DNA of 64,000 nt, from contig JAZQFG010000050.1 of the NCBI GenBank assembly GCA_045539375.1, positions 68,589 to 132,588 on the forward strand, read 5' to 3'. Under the pieces are notes generated by a model. That model was not told where the DNA came from and ran no database searches. It saw nothing but the letters and a program-made list of their open reading frames with translations. Below, piece after piece: positions 40,117 to 47,117 of this stretch. This DNA comes from Acutalibacteraceae bacterium (GTDB lineage: Bacteria; Bacillota; Clostridia; Oscillospirales; Acutalibacteraceae). How positions within the stretch are numbered: position 1 is the first letter of the stretch; each line of letters begins with the position of its first letter. A program made the position numbers and the translations under genes.

Positions 40117-40154
40117 GCGTTGGGAGGATATACTACGGGCGAGGAGTGATGGAT

Positions 40155-40598
40155 ATGAACCCCACCGAAAAGGAATATCAGCAGATGACCAAAAAGGCGT
40201 CCCCCGGCTCTCCCGTGGTAAAAAATTGTTTGTTTGCCTTTGGTGTCGGCGGTTTTTTGTGCGCCTTGGGTGAGACGGCGTATCAGCTGATCGCCATGAC
40301 CGGTATGGAGCAAAAGACCGCACGGATGCTGGCCTCCGGCTTGCTGATTTTGCTGGCGGCGGTGCTGACGCTGCTGCAAGTGTTTGATAATATCGCCAAG
40401 CACGCGGGGGCCGGCACGCTGGTGCCCATCACCGGCTTTGCCAATTCGGTGGTCTCCCCGGCCATTGAGTTTAAGACCGAGGGTTTCATCCTCGGTCTGG
40501 GTGCTAAGATGTTCACCATCGCAGGGCCGGTGATCGTGTACGGTGTGTCTGCAAGTGTAGTGTATGGACTGATTTATTGGATAACCACATTATTTTAA
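40155..40598 (+). CDS. spoVAC: Stage V sporulation protein AC
   Basis: MNPTEKEYQQMTKKASPGSPVVKNCLFAFGVGGFLCALGE...PITGFANSV..PAIEFKTEGFILGLGAKMF matches SpoVAC end to end. The ATG at 40155 lies 8 nt after GAGGAG. Confidence 0.9.
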   Translation: MNPTEKEYQQMTKKASPGSPVVKNCLFAFGVGGFLCALGETAYQLIAMTGMEQKTARMLASGLLILLAAVLTLLQVFDNIAKHAGAGTLVPITGFANSVVSPAIEFKTEGFILGLGAKMFTIAGPVIVYGVSASVVYGLIYWITTLF

Positions 40599-40604
40599 CA
40601 AAAA

Positions 40605-40627
40605 GGCTTGACCAAATCGGTCAAGCC
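40605..40627. terminator. Bidirectional terminator hairpin (array hairpin 1)
   Basis: AAAAA-GGCTTGACC-AAATC-GGTCAAGCC-CTTTC, lying between the convergent spoVAC and the cassette-1 gene. Confidence 0.65.
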
Positions 40628-40634
40628 CTTTCTG

Positions 40635-41300
40635 TTATTCTGTAGTAAAGAAACCATCGCTAGTGGTAACATTTAAAATTCCGTAAGAAGAGAGTGTAGT
40701 CTTTGGTCCTGTTTCTTGGGGATATCTATAAGGCCACCAAGTTAAGAACTCTTCGGATACTTGATCAATAGGAGTATCGGGAAGGTAGAAAATGAATTCG
40801 GTACATTCTTGCTTTTTGCTGGGATCATACAGTCCATAAGGGGCACTTGCTATATAACGGATTTCATCCTCAATCCATTCTTCACCAACTACTTTTTCAG
40901 TTTTTACATCTGTTAAAGTCATTTGGTAGGAATACTCATCGACTTTTTTGATGTTCTCAAACTTTCCAGAAAAATCACAAATGTATGCACTACCCTTCGG
41001 ATAACCCTCACCGGTTTCGCCCATCTCTGAATCAAGATACCGTCCTGTAAATGTGCCATCACGGTTTAGTGTTATAGTTGTCCGCCAAGCCCCTGCACCA
41101 GAAAGAAAAGAGAATTCTATTGAATCTTGCGGTAAAGGTAAGGACTCTACTTCCGTGGTGTGTTTTGCTTCGGTGGATATTGTGGTTGTAGGGTCGTCAT
41201 CGGATATGCTTGGATTACTCTTTTGCAGTTCATTCGAACAAGCGGTTAAAAGCAAGAAAAGTAATGCTATGACGAGAATAATGCTTAATAACTTTTTCAT
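40635..41300 (-). CDS. Cassette 1 cargo: lipoprotein of unknown function
   Basis: MKKLLSIILVIALLFLLLTAC lipobox and a GAGGTGG RBS. Hand counts of 60-nt lines give about 38-45% GC, against about 57-65% in the flanks. Confidence 0.75.
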   Translation of the reverse strand: MKKLLSIILVIALLFLLLTACSNELQKSNPSISDDDPTTTISTEAKHTTEVESLPLPQDSIEFSFLSGAGAWRTTITLNRDGTFTGRYLDSEMGETGEGYPKGSAYICDFSGKFENIKKVDEYSYQMTLTDVKTEKVVGEEWIEDEIRYIASAPYGLYDPSKKQECTEFIFYLPDTPIDQVSEEFLTWWPYRYPQETGPKTTLSSYGILNVTTSDGFFTTE

Positions 41301-41321
41301 AAAACCACCTCACTTTATTTC

Positions 41322-41349
41322 ATTATACCACACCGCCGTTTTAATGTAA
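41322..41349 (-). promoter_or_regulatory. Candidate sigma-A promoter of cassette 1 (inside the conserved cassette backbone)
   Basis: The minus strand reads TTACAT, 16-nt spacer, then TGgTATAAT. The TSS would fall about 15 nt upstream of the ATG. Confidence 0.5.
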
Positions 41350-41389
41350 ATGTTATTTTAAATGGGTGTGTCCTATATTGACAGCAGCA

Positions 41390-41509
41390 GAGGGTTTCAT
41401 CCTCGGTCTGGGCGCAAAGATGTTCACCATCGCCGGCCCCGTTATCGTCTACGGCGTCGCCGCCAGCGTGGTTTATGGCTTCATTTATTGGATTACCACA
41501 TTGTTCTAA
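41390..41509 (+). pseudogene. Stranded copy 2 of the spoVAC 3' end (last ~39 codons plus stop)
   Basis: Encodes EGFILGLGAKMFTIAGPVIVYGVAASVVYGFIYWITTLF*. It aligns base-for-base with 40479-40598, with mostly third-position differences. There is no 5' part of the gene. Confidence 0.9.
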
Positions 41510-41516
41510 CGAAAAA

Positions 41517-41539
41517 GGCTTGACCCATCGGGTCAAGCC
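41517..41539. terminator. Array hairpin 2
   Basis: GGCTTGACC-CATCG-GGTCAAGCC, flanked by an A-run and CTTTCTC. Same stem as hairpin 1. Confidence 0.65.
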
Positions 41540-41545
41540 TTTCTC

Positions 41546-42187
41546 TTATATATCCAACAATTCCTTAAAATCATAAATATAAAAGTCGGTGGTGGCTTTC
41601 ATTTGCTCTACATAATCCTTCGAGGAATCGTCATATACGCCGCAGACCGACATACCCGCCGACTTTGCGGTTTTATCGGCATCAATATTGTCATCTAAAA
41701 ACAGAACATTGTCAACAGAGGTCTTCATTTTTGCAGCTGCCATAACATAGATGTTCGGGTCTGCCTTGGTTGTATTAAAATCGTCGCAGGACCAAATGTT
41801 ATCAAAGAGTTCCCACATACCCAGTCGCTTCAAGCAAGCATCCAGTGTAATGTGGGGACTGGCAGTTAGCACATTTAAGCTTGCCCCTTGCTGCTTTAGC
41901 TCTTGGAGAACGGATATCACATTGCTTTTTGCGGGAATGGTATAAAAATACGCGTCCAGCATATATTCTTTCATAGTAAGCATCAGCTGCTCCTTGGACA
42001 TTTGCAGACCTAACTGGTTTATGAAGTACTCGGCTGTACCGCTAAGTCCAAGGGGTGTAATAACTTTTACGATGTCATCCCCATAAGAGATGTTGTTTTC
42101 ATCCAAAATGCGGAGCATACAGGAGCAGAAAGTGGGCATAGAATCCACCAATGTTCCGTCAAAATCAAAAAGATAAAAAGATTTCAT
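41546..42187 (-). CDS. Cassette 2 cargo: HAD-IA family hydrolase (phosphatase)
   Basis: MKSFYLFDFDGTLVDS motif I and LFLDDNIDADK motif IV. The ATG at 42187 lies 6 nt after AAGGAGAG. AT-rich. Confidence 0.85.
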   Translation of the reverse strand: MKSFYLFDFDGTLVDSMPTFCSCMLRILDENNISYGDDIVKVITPLGLSGTAEYFINQLGLQMSKEQLMLTMKEYMLDAYFYTIPAKSNVISVLQELKQQGASLNVLTASPHITLDACLKRLGMWELFDNIWSCDDFNTTKADPNIYVMAAAKMKTSVDNVLFLDDNIDADKTAKSAGMSVCGVYDDSSKDYVEQMKATTDFYIYDFKELLDI

Positions 42188-42215
42188 TGTCAACTCTCCT
42201 TAAAATATCCCCATT

Positions 42216-42243
42216 ATTATACCCCGCCGCCGCGTTAATGTAA
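42216..42243 (-). promoter_or_regulatory. Candidate sigma-A promoter of cassette 2 (same backbone position as in cassette 1)
   Basis: The minus strand reads TTACAT, 16-nt spacer, then TATAAT. Confidence 0.5.
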
Positions 42244-42281
42244 ATATTTTTTCATCATTGTGTCCTATATTGACAGCAGCA

Positions 42282-42401
42282 GAGGGTTTCATCCTCGGTC
42301 TGGGCGCTAAGATGTTCACCATCGCCTGCCCCGTTATCGTCTACGGCATCGCCGCCAGCGTGGTGTATGGGGTGGTGTATTGGATAACGACTATAATATG
42401 A
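42282..42401 (+). pseudogene. Stranded copy 3 of the spoVAC 3' end
   Basis: Encodes EGFILGLGAKMFTIACPVIVYGIAASVVYGVVYWITTII*. The left junction is identical to that of copy 2. Confidence 0.9.
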
Positions 42402-42404
42402 AAA

Positions 42405-42429
42405 ACAGGCGGTCTAAATGACCGCCTGT
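42405..42429. terminator. Array hairpin 3 (different sequence)
   Basis: ACAGGCGGTC-TAAAT-GACCGCCTGT, preceded by AAAA. Confidence 0.6.
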
Positions 42430-42477
42430 TCAACTTTTATGTTCTTTCTATCCCTAACATTTCTTTGATCTGGGTAT

Positions 42478-44442
42478 TCACTCTACAAACATCCGGAAGT
42501 CGAAGGCTTTTGGCACGGATGCTGTGGTTGGGTCGAAGGTCAGACCGGCTTTCTTGGCTTTTTCACACTGGATATTCAGATAGAGTTCGGTGAGGGACTC
42601 CTCGCTCTCGCGGATGTCCTCCACCACCAAGCCGCCATCGCGGTAAAGTACGGCTTCGGCGGCGTCAACCTCACCTTGCCGCAGCAGGGCAAGTGCATAC
42701 AGCATACTGACCCGACCATCCTGTGCAACGGCTGCCGGCAAGGTTGTATACGTCCGGACAACCGCCTGCAGATCGTTCACGTACAGAGCTGCCCGCAGGG
42801 CCTCTCTGGTCAGGGGAATATCGTCAGTACATACACTCTGGGCCTCCAGCAGCGTGGAGGCGCAGGCTTGCTGCTCGCCGGCCATCCGCTGGATCTCAGC
42901 CAGCACGAACAGTGCAGCGGCCGAGCGGGAGAAGGCCACGGCTGCCTGTGCCGCCTTTTTAGCGGTCTCCAGCTGTCCTTGTACAGCGTAGATTGCCGCC
43001 AGGTGCAGTTGTTTTTCGTAGCTGTCCGGCGCCGCCTCCAACAGAGCGGTCCACTCCTTTTGCAGCATCCAGGAAACAGGGAAGGCACAAGCCTCCTGCC
43101 GCGATAGGCTGCCCTGTTGCAGTAGCGCATACCACGGCTGCTGCTCATCCTGTAACTGACCGAAATCCAGATACGGGCACAAGGGATCCTCATCCTGTAC
43201 TTCCCGGCGCAGCTGTTCCAGTTTGCCCCATCCGGAGCCACAGAAAACGGTCTTTGCCGGTGAGGTAGCCATTCCATGGGTATCCGCCAGCAGCTTGTTC
43301 AATGTTTCCGGGGAGACTTGTTCCCCGATTGCTGCGGCTGTCTGCTCAATGGCAGTATCCCAGTCACCGTTAACCGTGGACGGATCCATCGACACGGCAC
43401 CGTAGCATTCTACCCATTCCCAGGCGGTTTTTGGGGGCATAGGGATGCACTCATACTGTGTCTGCCCTACGCCCGCTTGGATCTCTGCATAGCGACGGGT
43501 GGTATCGTCTTCGGAGAGAAATTCCTGCCAGCGTGCACCACCCGGCCCCTGTCCCCAGACGAACAGCTTGCGCCCTCTCTGTCGGGCGGTGGAGGCTTGG
43601 AAAAAGCCATATCCATCCGGAGCAAAATAGGCCATGAATTTCCGCTCTTCAGGCGGGATTTTCCAGAAATAGTCCACTGCCACGGGGTTGTTTGTGGGGT
43701 AGCTGATGTCCCGCCCCTGATGAAGCGGCGCCTGCACCTTGCCGAGGACATAATTCTTATTGGTATAAGCGGCGTGGGCAGGGACGATCATGCGGTAGCC
43801 CTCGTCTTCCGGTACGGCGATGTTCGTCCACCAGTACATGGGGACCGTCTCTCGATTGGGGTTGACGATGCGCATACGACCGTACAGCACTTTAGAGTCG
43901 GCGGGCAGAAAGAAATCCATCTGATAGACGCAGGCGCGGATGCGTTCATATTCGTAAAAACGCAGCACCGGTGTGCCGTCTTCCAGGGCGGTCTGAGCCA
44001 TAAACATACGGTCGCAGGTGAAGGGGCCGTGCCCCACCATGCCGCAGTTGAATTCGATGCCGCCGGAGAGCCAGGCGTTGCGCAGTGCCAGATTACAAGG
44101 ACGGACGACGGTGTTTTCGTACAGCAGGTCTCGACCGGCTTTTTTATCGTACAGCGACCACAGACGTCCCCCCAGCTGGGGCAGAAATACTGCCCGCAGG
44201 TATTCGTTTTCCAGGACGGCTGCCGTATATTCTCGAGGTGTCAGTGTGCGGTCATAAAGATCCTGCATACGGTAAGGAAAGATGGACTGTAAAAACCCGT
44301 ATCCGATGTAAATCTCATCATCTTCATCCAAGGCGCCGCCGGTCATATTTTGCACGTTAGACACCGCGGCCAACGGGGGCAGTGACGAGACTCCGTGGAA
44401 ATCCGCAGACGGAATGATCATCTTTTCAAAATGCAAGCTCAT
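42478..44442 (-). CDS. Cassette 3 cargo: DUF5107-like beta-sandwich protein with C-terminal TPR-like helical repeats
   Basis: About 654 aa. The ATG at 44442 lies about 10 nt after GGGAGG. The N-terminal two thirds resemble DUF5107/aldose-epimerase-like proteins (from memory). The C-terminus is alanine-rich helical repeats. Confidence 0.55.
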   Translation of the reverse strand: MSLHFEKMIIPSADFHGVSSLPPLAAVSNVQNMTGGALDEDDEIYIGYGFLQSIFPYRMQDLYDRTLTPREYTAAVLENEYLRAVFLPQLGGRLWSLYDKKAGRDLLYENTVVRPCNLALRNAWLSGGIEFNCGMVGHGPFTCDRMFMAQTALEDGTPVLRFYEYERIRACVYQMDFFLPADSKVLYGRMRIVNPNRETVPMYWWTNIAVPEDEGYRMIVPAHAAYTNKNYVLGKVQAPLHQGRDISYPTNNPVAVDYFWKIPPEERKFMAYFAPDGYGFFQASTARQRGRKLFVWGQGPGGARWQEFLSEDDTTRRYAEIQAGVGQTQYECIPMPPKTAWEWVECYGAVSMDPSTVNGDWDTAIEQTAAAIGEQVSPETLNKLLADTHGMATSPAKTVFCGSGWGKLEQLRREVQDEDPLCPYLDFGQLQDEQQPWYALLQQGSLSRQEACAFPVSWMLQKEWTALLEAAPDSYEKQLHLAAIYAVQGQLETAKKAAQAAVAFSRSAAALFVLAEIQRMAGEQQACASTLLEAQSVCTDDIPLTREALRAALYVNDLQAVVRTYTTLPAAVAQDGRVSMLYALALLRQGEVDAAEAVLYRDGGLVVEDIRESEESLTELYLNIQCEKAKKAGLTFDPTTASVPKAFDFRMFVE

Positions 44443-44495
44443 ACTGCTATTTTCCTCCCAACTTAACATCTGGTATAGTATTGTTGTATCATGTT

Positions 44496-44663
44496 TTGAC
44501 AGGGGGTTTCAATAGCAAATTTTTTAGAATGTTATGGTTTATTTGGAAAGGTTCGGAAGGCAGGCTTCTATGGTGCGTTACCAAGATATTCACCATCGCC
44601 GGCCCGGTGATCGCCTACGGCGTCGCCGCCAGCGCGGTGTATGGGGTGATTGTTGGAGAATAG
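44496..44663 (+). pseudogene. Degenerate copy 4 of the spoVAC 3' end (junction motif, ~70-bp replacement, then last ~26 codons)
   Basis: TTGACAGGGGGTTTCA junction at 44496-44511. From 44583 it encodes KIFTIAGPVIAYGVAASAVYGVIVGE*. The track ORF 44481-44663 is a chimera of filler and this fragment. Confidence 0.8.
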
Positions 44664-44710: not shown

Positions 44711-45910
44711 TTACGTATGGGAATACAGCTTTGCCAGACCGCCCTCGGAGGTTTCGCGGTACAGGTGGGACAGATCCTTACCGGTTTGATACATGGTCTC
44801 CACCACGCAGTCAAAACTGACCTTGCGGCTGCCGTAGAGGAAATTCGCCAGACTCAGGGCGTTGATGGCCCGCATCGCCGCCACGGCGTTGCGCTCGATG
44901 CAGGGGATCTGCACCAGTCCGCAGACGGGGTCGCAGGTCAGCCCCAGATGGTGCTCCATCGCCACCTCGGCGGCGTATTCGATCTGGTCGATGCCCATCT
45001 CGAACAATTCGCACAGAGCCGCCGCCGCCATACTGCAGGCGGGGCCCACCTCGGCCTGACAGCCGCACTCGGCACCGCTGATGGAGGCGTTGGTGGCCAC
45101 GATGCTGCCTACCAGACCTGCCACTGCCAGAGCGCGGAGGATATCGTTGTCGGAGAAGCCGTTTTTATCCTGCATATATTTCAGCACCGCCGGCACGATG
45201 CCGCAGGAGCCGCAGGTGGGGGCGGTGACGATGATGCCGCAGTCGGCATTCTGCTCGCTGACCGCAAAGGCATAGGCGCACACCAGCCGGTTTTCGCGGG
45301 TCTGGGGGCTCTCGTCAATGTGCTTTTGGCTGTACAGGAACTGGGCCTTGCGCTCCACGTCCAGTCCGCCGGGCAGGATGCCGGTCTTGGTCAGTCCCTC
45401 GCTGATGGCGTTCTGCATGGTGTGCCACACGCTCAGCAGATAGGGCTTGATCTCCGGTTCCCGCTCAAACACGTAGTCGGACAGACGGATGTTCCGTGCC
45501 TTGCACAGGGTGGCGATGGCGCCGAAGGTGTTTTCAGGATACACCTCCACGGCGGTGGTGGTATCGCCGCCGTCGGTGCGGATCTCGCCGCCGCCGATGC
45601 TGTAATAGCGCTGCTTGCCCATCTCGACGCCCTTGCGATAGGCCGTAAAATCAATGGTGTTGGGGTGTATGGGGGTGGGGGAGTCGGTGTCCCAGACTAC
45701 CTCGGCGGGCACGTCCGCCAGGGTATCCAGCACCGCGCGGTCGGTGCCGTGCCCCTTACCGGTTTTGGCCAAAGAGCCGTAGAGGGTCACCCGTACGAAA
45801 TCTGCCCCATCGTGGGCGGAGATGAACTGCTGTGCCGCATAGGCGGGGCCCATGGTGTGGGAGCTGGAGGGGCCGTAGCCGATCTTATAGATATTTTTGA
45901 TGGATTGCAT
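44711..45910 (-). CDS. sdaA: L-serine ammonia-lyase (iron-sulfur dependent, single-chain)
   Basis: MQSIKNIYKIGYGPSSSHTMGP N-terminus, and the CGSCG and SGAECGCQAEVG cluster regions. The track start at 46087 runs through a terminator and into the XRE gene, so it was trimmed to 45910 (alternative 45940). Confidence 0.88.
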   Translation of the reverse strand: MQSIKNIYKIGYGPSSSHTMGPAYAAQQFISAHDGADFVRVTLYGSLAKTGKGHGTDRAVLDTLADVPAEVVWDTDSPTPIHPNTIDFTAYRKGVEMGKQRYYSIGGGEIRTDGGDTTTAVEVYPENTFGAIATLCKARNIRLSDYVFEREPEIKPYLLSVWHTMQNAISEGLTKTGILPGGLDVERKAQFLYSQKHIDESPQTRENRLVCAYAFAVSEQNADCGIIVTAPTCGSCGIVPAVLKYMQDKNGFSDNDILRALAVAGLVGSIVATNASISGAECGCQAEVGPACSMAAAALCELFEMGIDQIEYAAEVAMEHHLGLTCDPVCGLVQIPCIERNAVAAMRAINALSLANFLYGSRKVSFDCVVETMYQTGKDLSHLYRETSEGGLAKLYSHT

Positions 45911-45971
45911 CAAAATCACCTGCTTGTCATTTTTTCTCATTTTATCACGAACCCAACCTCTTTGCAACCAT

Positions 45972-46003
45972 AAAAAAGCCTCCCCGTGTGGGGAGGCTTT
46001 TTT
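45972..46003. terminator. Terminator hairpin, left copy of an identical 32-bp repeat
   Basis: AAAAAAGCCTCCCCGTGTGGGGAGGCTTTTTT. Confidence 0.8.
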
Positions 46004-46232
46004 AGTTTTCACGAAAATCAAAGAGCTTGCTGGGAGATACCTGTAACACTTCACAAATCTGAAATACCACATCCAGCGAAACGGCACAGTCTGCCGTTTC
46101 GATACGGCTCATATGGGTACGGCTGATGTTGACCCTTTCGGCTAATTGCATTTGAGAAAGACCGCACTTTTTGCGGTAATAGGCAACGTTTAAGCCCAGA
46201 TAACGGAACTTGTCTTGATGATGCATATCCAT
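46002..46232 (-). CDS. XRE-family HTH transcriptional regulator (76 aa)
   Basis: LSQMQLAERVNISRTHMSRIETADCAVSLDVVFQICEVL is a Cro/C1 HTH. Confidence 0.8.
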   Translation of the reverse strand: MDMHHQDKFRYLGLNVAYYRKKCGLSQMQLAERVNISRTHMSRIETADCAVSLDVVFQICEVLQVSPSKLFDFREN

Positions 46233-46292
46233 CGTATCACCTCAATACCAGTATACCCATCCAAACACGCAAGAGCGACAACGCTAATTGTT

Positions 46293-46321
46293 ATTTATGT
46301 AACTTGACAAGTTACATAAAT
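46293..46321. promoter_or_regulatory. 29-bp perfect palindrome (candidate XRE operator) overlapping a TTGACA -35
   Basis: ATTTATGTAACTTG-A-CAAGTTACATAAAT. TTGACA at 46304-46309, then about a 16-17 nt spacer to TGTGTAATAAT. Confidence 0.5.
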
Positions 46322-46362
46322 TGTGTAATAATACACGAGATAGGGATACGAAAAGAGGTGAG

Positions 46363-47085
46363 GTGGATTTGTATTCAACCATCATTATTATCATCGCGGG
46401 CGTCTGTGCTTTGTTTGCGATGGGACTGTTTGTGAAGGCGGGTTTTCTAAGAAAGATTTTAGTAAAGTTAGGTGTTGCGGAACAGCGGGGGAAAGTCAAT
46501 TGGACCGCTTTTTCGTGGGAAACTTGTCTTAAGAAAATGGATTGCCGGGCCGATGTGGTATTCTTTGGCGATTCTATTGTGCAGGGCGGCAATTTTCACC
46601 TCGCTTTCCCAGAGTATAAGATCGTCAATTTAGGGCTCGGCGGCGATACTTTGTCAGGTATGTGTGGACGGGTATCCACAGTGCAGGCATTACAACCGCA
46701 AAAAGTGTTTTGCCTTGGCGGTATTAATGGATTAACCGACTGGAACGGTAAAATGAGTTTAAAGACCTATCGACGGTTACTAACACGGTTACGAGAAGAG
46801 TTGCCATTCGCTGAGATTTATGTGCATAGTTTGTTCCCGGTGACGAAAAGTAGAGAACGTGGTCTATGTAAAAACAGCACTATCCTATGGTTTAATCGTG
46901 AGGTTGAAAAGATGGCAAAAGAAATGGGCGTTAACTATATTGATATTCACAGTCGGTATGTTATGGAGGGTGTGATGAATCCTGCGTATTGTCAGAAAGA
47001 TGGTCTGCATATTGCCAATGCCGGATATGCATTGTGGTATGAGGAGTTAAAAGCGTACTTACCTACTATTGCAGAAAAAAAGTAA
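46363..47085 (+). CDS. SGNH/GDSL-family hydrolase with N-terminal membrane anchor
   Basis: Block I FFGDSIVQGG, block II LGLGGDT, block III GGINGL, block V DGLHI. The start is GTG 46363 or TTG 46369, after GAGGTGAG. The track start at 46321 lies inside the promoter/palindrome. Confidence 0.75.
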   Translation: MDLYSTIIIIIAGVCALFAMGLFVKAGFLRKILVKLGVAEQRGKVNWTAFSWETCLKKMDCRADVVFFGDSIVQGGNFHLAFPEYKIVNLGLGGDTLSGMCGRVSTVQALQPQKVFCLGGINGLTDWNGKMSLKTYRRLLTRLREELPFAEIYVHSLFPVTKSRERGLCKNSTILWFNREVEKMAKEMGVNYIDIHSRYVMEGVMNPAYCQKDGLHIANAGYALWYEELKAYLPTIAEKK

Positions 47086-47117
47086 AAAAGCCTCCCCGTG
47101 TGGGGAGGCTTTTTTTA
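47084..47117. terminator. Terminator hairpin, right copy of the identical 32-bp repeat
   Basis: AAAAAAGCCTCCCCGTGTGGGGAGGCTTTTTTT, between the convergent SGNH and acyltransferase genes. Confidence 0.8.

Follow-up and report, generated by a model that had tools for sequence, protein, structure and literature searches.

Composite islands of the SCC (staphylococcal cassette chromosome) type, among them pseudo-SCC elements that lack the ccr genes, occupy the 3′ end of rlmH/orfX (PMC7029136), while conjugative elements of Streptococcus that carry triplets of serine integrases insert inside genes with 2-8-bp repeats, their published targets being mutT, traG and hsdM rather than spoVAC (PMC4701971). 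A further group, the gene-intervening elements of sporulation genes, is represented in the titles and abstracts of the papers found by skin in sigK, SPbeta in spsM and gin in gerE (PMC5595907, PMC4191935), and spoVAC is not among the targets named there, nor does the term 'spoVA' appear in those papers. Here we describe small gene cassettes lined up behind spoVAC in an Acutalibacteraceae bacterium of the order Oscillospirales, in a stretch of 64,000 nucleotides (assembly GCA_045539375.1, contig JAZQFG010000050.1, positions 68,589 to 132,588) that is referred to below as the window. It is near-certain that these cassettes belong to a promoter-bearing mobile family, and the explanation that we favour, with moderate confidence, is that they are recombinase-less units seated at spoVAC which end in one half, the element-side or P half, of an attachment site for serine recombinases and are moved in trans. 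Such a family, made up of very small gene cassettes that lack a recombinase and are widespread in gut Clostridia, is apparently undescribed; full-text searches on spoVAC and cassettes, integrons, hotspots or intervening elements turned up no description of this system, and no recombinase-less satellite cassettes sharing an end with triplet-integrase elements were found in the literature searched.

The cassettes of the window share with SCC elements a single insertion site, which lies in the 3′ end of a gene that is conserved and whose reading frame they keep, and they too are stacked in tandem. The live spoVAC gene (40146-40598, plus strand; 150 aa; Pfam PF03862, E=1e-37) is chimeric, its 3′ end from the GA at 40479-40480 onward deriving from cassette 1; from position 40479 on it is 99% identical to the matching cassette of another species (locus L160) as against only ~75% upstream, and this 3′ part is low in GC, as the cargo is. 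Cassette 1 (40479-41389) consists of this replacement spoVAC 3′ end, a bidirectional terminator hairpin (40605-40627; GGCTTGACC...GGTCAAGCC) that was found again at ~90% identity in cassettes of other genomes, a minus-strand cargo gene (40635-41300) for a lipoprotein-like protein of 221 aa with a signal peptide and Cys and without a Pfam family, a predicted promoter, and a putative P-arm half-site (41368-41389, plus strand), which is the 23-mer GTGTCCTATATTGACAGCAGCAG minus its last G and is followed by the crossover GA at 41390-41391. From GA to GA the whole cassette is 99.9% identical in L160, whereas the flanks have diverged (~75% identity outside). Cassette 2 (41391-42281) is built in the same way from a displaced copy of the spoVAC 3′ end with an open frame (EGFILGLGAKMF...TTLF*; 41390-41509, plus strand), a terminator (41514-41542), a minus-strand gene for a HAD-family hydrolase (41546-42187; 213 aa from the ATG at 42187, with an alternative TTG start at 42193; Pfam HAD_2, E=1.4e-24), a predicted promoter and its own P arm (42260-42281, plus strand; crossover GA 42282-42283). 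A second displaced copy (42282-42401, plus strand) then leads into a different terminator (42404-42430), a type of end plus terminator that also forms the left end of cassettes at three other loci (L144, L080 and L069). The last ~120 nt of spoVAC are present in four copies in the window, the live one and three downstream, so that here too, as in SCC, the elements are bounded by direct repeats with the integration site, with four spoVAC ends in the window and up to seven in relatives. The repeat is, however, 120 nt of coding sequence as compared to ~18 nt in SCC, the target is spoVAC in Clostridia, and the cassettes are of miniature size, as a rule a single gene within 0.5-1.3 kb, and are equipped as standard with a terminator and an outward promoter. 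Owing to the spoVAC target and the Oscillospirales hosts, in place of rlmH and Staphylococcus, the system is an analogue of SCC and not a member of it, and the SCC family with its pseudo-elements is the closest functional analogue.

The first two cargo genes have a GC content of 0.39-0.42 as compared to ~0.58 in the flanks (0.39 for the lipoprotein-like gene, which has relatives at three loci), while spoVAC-end copies 1 and 2 are 89% identical to each other and host-like in GC. The latter observation is what a local tandem duplication confined to this genome would produce, with no mobility and with the genes between the repeats having diverged. As the original prediction had held, however, the lipoprotein-like and HAD cargo are unrelated, with no significant mutual similarity, and the same units with other cargo occur in more than 100 other species; a purely local duplication is thereby refuted and retains practically no probability.

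A scan for the exact pattern, with one genome taken per species, returned at least 119 genome stretches, all of them metagenome-assembled and assigned to Acutalibacteraceae, Oscillospiraceae, Faecousia, Ruminococcus, Avispirillum and related groups, and many of the array-bearing genomes came from ruminant guts (goat, sheep, deer, cattle and buffalo). Within the genome of the window the unit was found at this locus only. The backbone with its spoVAC end was present in 29 of 61 related genomes, one of which belongs to a different family, frequently as several successive copies, and on 31 further metagenome contigs; ~200 displaced spoVAC ends were counted across 131 loci in metagenome-assembled genomes of Oscillospirales. 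Nearly all of 138 pattern matches continue in frame with EGF(I/V)LGVGAKMFTIAGPVIVYG...TTLF*, the C terminus of SpoVAC, the sole clear outlier being L153, a locus of a genome labelled Faecalimonas in which no recognisable SpoVAC fragment follows the match. Faecalimonas belongs to the Lachnospiraceae and not to the Oscillospirales. The layout is constant, in that the live spoVAC is followed by one to at least seven units, each made up of a spare spoVAC end, a hairpin terminator, cargo and the end sequence; all junctions fall at the same GA of spoVAC, and the 3′ end of the live gene is a copy supplied by a cassette. From 128 delimited cassettes 178 cargo open reading frames (ORFs) were obtained, which form 113 clusters, 86 of them singletons. 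Most lack a Pfam family, the exceptions including DUF6442, DUF4304, MerR-type membrane proteins, polysaccharide deacetylase, and GDSL and HAD hydrolases, and the cargo GC is 0.31-0.39 even where that of the host is high. Cargo genes recur at 97-99.9% identity, or identically, in different species and at different positions of the arrays. The HAD protein of the window is itself identical in three other public assemblies (L235-L237), where its gene shows ~95% DNA identity and has different left neighbours; exact-protein look-up of the cargo 1 lipoprotein and of the flanking glycosidase found neither on record. It had been predicted from the window that a common, promoter-bearing end joined to different cargo marks a modular mobile cassette family whose backbone should recur elsewhere with other cargo, and the finding of such backbones, decisively, in at least 119 genome stretches with 113 cargo clusters and near-identical cargo in different species supports that reading.

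Several loci depart from the single-gene plan. A four-gene module (344/403/215-220/302 aa, the last LysR-like by eye) is common to L261 and L266, L260 holds five ORFs that include 699-aa and 292-aa products resembling, by eye, a glycyl-radical enzyme and its activase, and the module of L262 has ORFs of 224 and 548 aa that look two-component-like by eye; the cassette platform is therefore not limited to single genes. The same L266 (G065:C17) has at least seven junctions in a row, and in G070, a Faecousia genome, junction arrays with 15 matches in total lie on at least three contigs (C110, C59 and C44; L263-L265), which may reflect several spoVAC-like anchors or a fragmented assembly. L138 and L063 carry junction-plus-fragment units with no 5′ part of spoVAC within 5-6 kb upstream; rearrangement, loss of the live gene, or a binning or assembly error could account for this.

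The two backbones of the window, 41321-41389 and 42213-42281, for which an identity of roughly 75-80% had been estimated, are identical in 56 of 71 aligned columns (~80%), and a separate repeat search gave 84% identity between 41322-41358 and 42216-42252. Both end, as had been noted, in the 23-mer that abuts the spoVAC fragment (41368-41390 and 42260-42282), and this 23-mer occurs exactly twice in the window as compared to none expected (100 shuffles, up to three mismatches allowed). Both also contain a minus-strand promoter-like site, best written TTTACA-17-TATAAT; the earlier reading TTACAT-16 is the same site shifted by one base. For cassette 1 the predicted promoter (41322-41350) has its -35 hexamer TTTACA at 41345-41350, a 17-nt spacer and a TGg ahead of the -10 hexamer TATAAT at 41322-41327, which would place the transcription start near 41315, followed by a ribosome-binding site read as GAGGTGG (41305-41311, minus strand) 5 nt ahead of the ATG at 41300. 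That of cassette 2 (42216-42244, minus strand) has TTTACA at 42239-42244, a 17-nt spacer and TATAAT at 42216-42221 with a predicted start near 42209, and its presumed 5′ untranslated region is unlike that of cassette 1; the TG extension is confined to the cassette 1 promoter of the two window copies. At 41350-41322 and 42244-42216 these are the two best sigma-70-type matches in a region of 4.8 kb, with 11 of 12 positions matching. Among 68 unique canonical backbones the -35 and -10 hexamers and the TGn are ~99% conserved as compared to a mean of ~82% for the 17-nt spacer, and the ribosome-binding region is 60-80% conserved. The evidence for promoter function is this combination of sequence and conservation, and the cassette promoter would be expected to fire away from spoVAC as a sigma-A-type promoter with a short leader.

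A shared promoter-bearing backbone had been proposed as the supply of expression for unrelated cargo, and this is supported, with two refinements. The promoter is the commonest option, with minus-strand cargo, the class A end (the exact 23-mer of the window) and the canonical promoter coming together in 75 of 128 cassettes, but it is not obligatory, as it is present in ~60% of cassettes and the other ~40% have different upstream sequence, most of them with another promoter-like sequence. Of the non-canonical minus-strand cassettes, 23 of 39 still score at least 10/12, and the mean best score is 9.4 as compared to 7.9 after shuffling. Self-expression consequently appears to be the rule, and the cassettes need a promoter of their own because they sit backwards behind the spoVAC terminator. 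The difference from promoterless integron cassettes that had been pointed out is likewise borne out, in so far as each cassette has its own promoter-like site directed away from spoVAC. The ~70-bp backbone does include a promoter module, yet the piece of it that is conserved best, the 23-mer, is a half-site for recombination rather than part of the promoter, and it is this half-site, not the promoter, that is the universal mark of the cassette family.

The 23-mer is ~100% conserved and is the most conserved piece of the unit, the adjoining linker being 45-66% conserved (68 backbones), while in the spoVAC fragment on its other side third codon positions vary freely. Its position relative to the GA of the spoVAC Glu codon stays the same regardless of the upstream sequence, be this another promoter or plus-strand cargo. 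Displaced fragments that do not have the exact 23-mer almost all carry a variant of equal length, GGGTCCTAAGTTGACACAAGCAG or GGGTCCTACTTGACCACAAGCAG, the former often with a second direct copy of the motif ahead of it; classes A, B and C of the end are equal in length and keep the pattern GTCCTA..TTGAC..CA.GCAG, and in some classes conservation reaches ~40-60 nt. Elsewhere in the genome of the window one near-match lies in a hydrolase coding sequence and one at an unremarkable position, and no other functional-looking copy was found there; the class A 23-mer had no match in viral contigs. By this pattern of conservation the 23-mer would behave as a protein-binding recombination site and not as a promoter element. 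Were it instead an operator bound by a transcription factor that controls the cassette promoters, with the link to the spoVAC end incidental, the weak palindrome GTGTC-N7-GACAG centred at about -62 from the predicted start would be accounted for; its position, however, is fixed relative to the spoVAC GA and not to the promoter, cassettes with other promoters or plus-strand cargo keep it at different distances, ends of this type close recombinase elements that have no cargo promoter there, and there is no regulon-like copy elsewhere in the genome. We regard the operator explanation as very unlikely.

The recombinase elements in question emerged when viral contigs were scanned with the variant junction patterns, which returned four contigs (L267, L268, L269 and L270). 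Three of these (L267, L268 and L270) encode three consecutive proteins of 535-571 aa with Resolvase and Recombinase domains, mostly also with Zn-ribbon and DUF4368, whereas on L269, a cut contig, only the junction-proximal recombinase is visible. On all four the recombinase genes stop ~100 nt before a class B/C junction with its spoVAC fragment, and the three genes form three orthologous groups that are 55-78% identical between contigs; compared with cassette ends, those of the elements agree at 54 of 60 and at 23 of 23 positions. The same recombinase module ends a low-GC element of ~117 kb in the genome G283 (G283:C1:60880-178915; L291-L298). Its right junction reads ...GGGTCCTATCTTGACACAAGCA-GA-GGGGTAC... 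and is succeeded by the spoVAC end, beyond which lies a gene (G283:C1:181750-182748) whose product looks SpoVAD-like by eye from its N-terminal sequence, while its left junction, ...GCGAAGGCG-GA-TGAGCGTGATATAATAGGACTCAG..., truncates spoVAC at the same GA and yields a 149-aa product (...AIDAKA|DERDIIGLSRKAQTFSG*). Read in inverted orientation, the left arm (P′) repeats the P arm imperfectly, with agreement at 16 of 30 positions, GTCCTAT among them, and this arrangement is that of the attP of a large serine integrase whose crossover is GA. Of the two arms, the cassettes of the window have P alone. Among 300 loci the P′ arm of G283 did not turn up a second time, and its sole match in viral contigs proved to be a chance match inside a coding sequence. 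A search for relatives of the junction-proximal recombinase in viral contigs returned the query only; its best matches were 52% identical in a phage collection and 39% in a plasmid collection, with TndX-like proteins at ~33%, and a 'phage' record that matched the spoVAC fragment was simply an intact spoVAC. Since the same end closes the three-recombinase elements, and since the G283 element splits spoVAC at the same GA with an inverted partner arm, we conclude with considerable confidence that the 23-mer is the P half of an attachment site for serine recombinases.

The large helper elements are to be grouped with the conjugative elements that carry integrase triplets, to which G283 corresponds in its three tandem large serine recombinases at the element end, its GA repeat, the disruption of spoVAC and an attP with imperfect inverted half-sites round a short crossover; the window cassettes and their genome differ in being without the three tandem recombinases. 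The comparison with SCC holds here as well, as its autonomous members also carry more than one large serine recombinase (CcrA/CcrB) and have ends in common with recombinase-less members, and as in pseudo-SCC many members have no recombinases and are thought to be moved in trans. The autonomous relatives of the cassettes differ in carrying three recombinases, and that of G283 splits spoVAC instead of restoring it. Because they split a sporulation gene, the helper elements resemble skin-type intervening elements, G283 being a large serine-recombinase element within such a gene, and this element either inactivates spoVAC or needs excision for sporulation, as skin-type elements do. The cassettes, unlike intervening elements, restore spoVAC by means of their spare end and therefore do not need developmental excision. 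As the spoVAC of the window stands alone, with no spoVAD or spoVAE nearby, and that of G283 has a spoVAD-like neighbour, the platform occurs in both orphan and operon contexts.

Starting from the GA of the Glu codon in ...EFK(T/S)-E-GF..., a cassette is ordered as the last 120 nt of spoVAC, a bidirectional terminator, cargo usually on the strand opposite to spoVAC, a promoter and the 23-nt end, its own spoVAC 3′ copy serving to keep the gene whole after insertion. The P arm lies on the right and the spoVAC-end copy on the left in place of a P′ arm, so that the joint of a circularised cassette would read P-GA-(spoVAC 3′ end). In the mechanism that we propose, triple-recombinase elements would supply the recombinases in trans, by which cassette circles would be inserted and perhaps excised, in the way that Ccr recombinases act on pseudo-SCC elements devoid of ccr. 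Insertion would always take place at the junction beside the live gene, the newest cassette lying next to the gene and the previous gene end being pushed outward, and homologous recombination across the ~250 bp of conserved sequence between cargo genes would then delete, swap and mosaic cassettes. An open frame of 36-44 codons was found in 171 of 197 displaced fragments, as is expected if each regularly serves as the end of the live gene. In several high-GC hosts, that of the window included, the gene-attached spoVAC fragment is low in GC at third codon positions (GC3) and the last fragment is host-like, though a GC3 gradient along arrays overall was not supported (p=0.96) in a comparison confounded by loci cut at 8-kb blocks.

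A number of observations weigh against this mechanism. No recombinase was found in or beside the arrays, nor anywhere in 1.17 Mb of array loci, and neither the genome of the window nor eight array-bearing relatives have the cognate recombinases, the best matches there reaching 25-28% identity; a clear orthologue was present in just one of 400 sampled genomes of the order. Owing to this absence the two cassettes of the window would currently be stranded passengers. None of the recombinase-bearing elements found has the exact class A 23-mer of the window, the closest end of such an element matching it at 20 of 23 positions. The left boundary of near-identical cargo is usually not the GA, falling instead 9 to ~150 nt into the fragment or terminator, with a start 27 to ~150 nt inward in most pairs other than that of cassette 1 and L160, and the right boundary sometimes lies inside the backbone, a pattern expected from homologous recombination alone. 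Finally, the cassette joint P-GA-B′ is formally of the attR type. A canonical large serine integrase that acts singly needs a directionality factor in order to recombine attR with attB, whereas the CcrAB recombinases of SCC set a precedent for the action of several recombinases on sites that share a gene-end half, and action in trans is therefore plausible only by analogy with CcrAB. It may be that the three recombinase paralogues divide the work, thereby letting the attR-type cassette joint recombine with attB without such a factor.

Homologous recombination is surely a part of cassette dynamics and could be the whole of it. According to this account one or a few ancient insertions of a serine-recombinase element left behind the P arm and a duplicated spoVAC end, and spread has since been RecA-dependent, with the fragment plus terminator and the promoter plus 23-mer acting as portable homology arms and the uniformity of the 23-mer being maintained by gene conversion or by selection for recombination proficiency rather than by a recombinase. 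Both boundaries of near-identical cargo do vary and fall within conserved modules, the array-bearing genomes examined contain no cognate recombinase, and L236 shows the HAD cargo with another left-hand context, the join lying inside the terminator hairpin. The invariant block with the core measures ~26-30 nt, a length close to the minimum for efficient RecA pairing. Conservation is, on the other hand, sharply confined to the 23-mer beside a linker at 45-66%, the three variant classes keep their length and motif pattern and match the variation among recombinase-element ends, and one pair is shared exactly from GA to GA. On the right, identity in 11 independent pairs never extends past the GA into the right-hand fragment. 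Homologous recombination, moreover, cannot build new cassettes around genes that have no homology, and it is poor at the 75-80% identity seen between the fragments of different species. We consider RecA-dependent spread alone to be unlikely, and lean, albeit modestly, towards the action of recombinases in trans.

The search for a recombinase within the array-bearing genomes bears also on an integron-like or other tyrosine-recombinase system (IntI/attC, CIME accretion, tycheposon-like or Xer-exploiting). Such a system would fit an array of single-gene cassettes beside a fixed site with no recombinase inside, and the repetition of a partial target-gene copy recalls tRNA-anchored islands. No tyrosine recombinase, however, is linked to the arrays, as a tblastn search with all 12 recombinases of the genome of the window against ~130 loci gave one edge match only, and its tyrosine recombinases are located away from the array and are not shared among array-bearing genomes. 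A comparison of tyrosine and serine recombinases between this genome and the eight relatives identified only a housekeeping Xer-like gene as common to them, and the one large serine recombinase of the genome is unrelated to the cognate enzymes (~25% identical). A small tyrosine recombinase of 185 aa, shared with another family, was dismissed as a candidate since it is confined to 5 of 61 genomes and its distribution does not follow that of the arrays. A plus-strand ORF of 410 aa that was met repeatedly had been suspected to encode a transposase, but its product is a MerR-type membrane protein. There are no attC-like inverted repeats, the only inverted repeats between cargo genes being the terminator hairpins, no dif-like site was found within seven mismatches of the Bacillus consensus, no Rfam family scored above threshold, and the end sequence belongs to serine-recombinase elements; a tyrosine-recombinase origin is thus extremely improbable. 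The presumed helper elements are far outnumbered by the cassettes, as would be usual for non-autonomous elements.

The arrays nonetheless share with integron arrays and CALINs their mostly single-gene cassettes of diverse and mostly unknown function, the common occurrence of arrays with no integrase nearby, and the probable addition of new cassettes beside a fixed site. They differ in having no IntI, no folded attC and no platform promoter, in the promoter and terminator that each cassette has of its own, mostly directed away from the anchoring gene, in a site that comprises a duplex serine-recombinase half-site and a copy of the target-gene end, and in their Gram-positive hosts. It is possible rather than probable that they represent a serine-recombinase counterpart of the integron in gut Clostridia, that is, a capture platform anchored to spoVAC at which self-expressing cassettes are inserted, excised and exchanged across species by means of recombinases borrowed from rare triple-recombinase conjugative elements.

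Beyond the second displaced copy, the window contains a DUF5107 gene (42478-44469, minus strand; 663 aa), which lies between spoVAC-end copies 2 and 3 and is host-like in GC (0.57). It is bounded by a decayed junction (TTGACAGGGGGTTTCA...), ~70 nt of unrelated sequence and a fragment ending VYGVIVGE*. This fourth junction with its spoVAC end (..KIFTIAGPVIAYGVAASAVYGVIVGE*; 44496-44663, plus strand) retains a 63% copy of the fragment near 44560-44663 and is probably the oldest or the original spoVAC end, and the region 42478-44663 could represent either a third cassette that is old and domesticated, or else the original gene neighbourhood. Just past the array an islet of low GC (0.38-0.45; 45900-47100) is set among high-GC genes and holds two genes, for a Cro/C1-type helix-turn-helix protein (46002-46232, minus strand) and a GDSL/SGNH hydrolase (46321-47085, plus strand).

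If the proposed explanation is correct, cassette-type gene capture would not be confined to the integrons of Gram-negative bacteria, and a compact, promoter-equipped form of it would exist in the abundant and mostly uncultured Clostridia of gut and rumen, with more than 100 gene families of unknown function circulating between species and even between families. A further, testable question would be by what means modules of several recombinases work on attachment sites that are hybrid. In genome annotation, a spoVAC end that is repeated should be taken as a cassette boundary rather than as a pseudogene or an assembly error. The organisms concerned are currently without genetic tools, and the system would offer parts for such tools in the form of a promoter that is strong and conserved and has a short leader, of a terminator that works in both directions, and of a natural landing site together with its recombinases.

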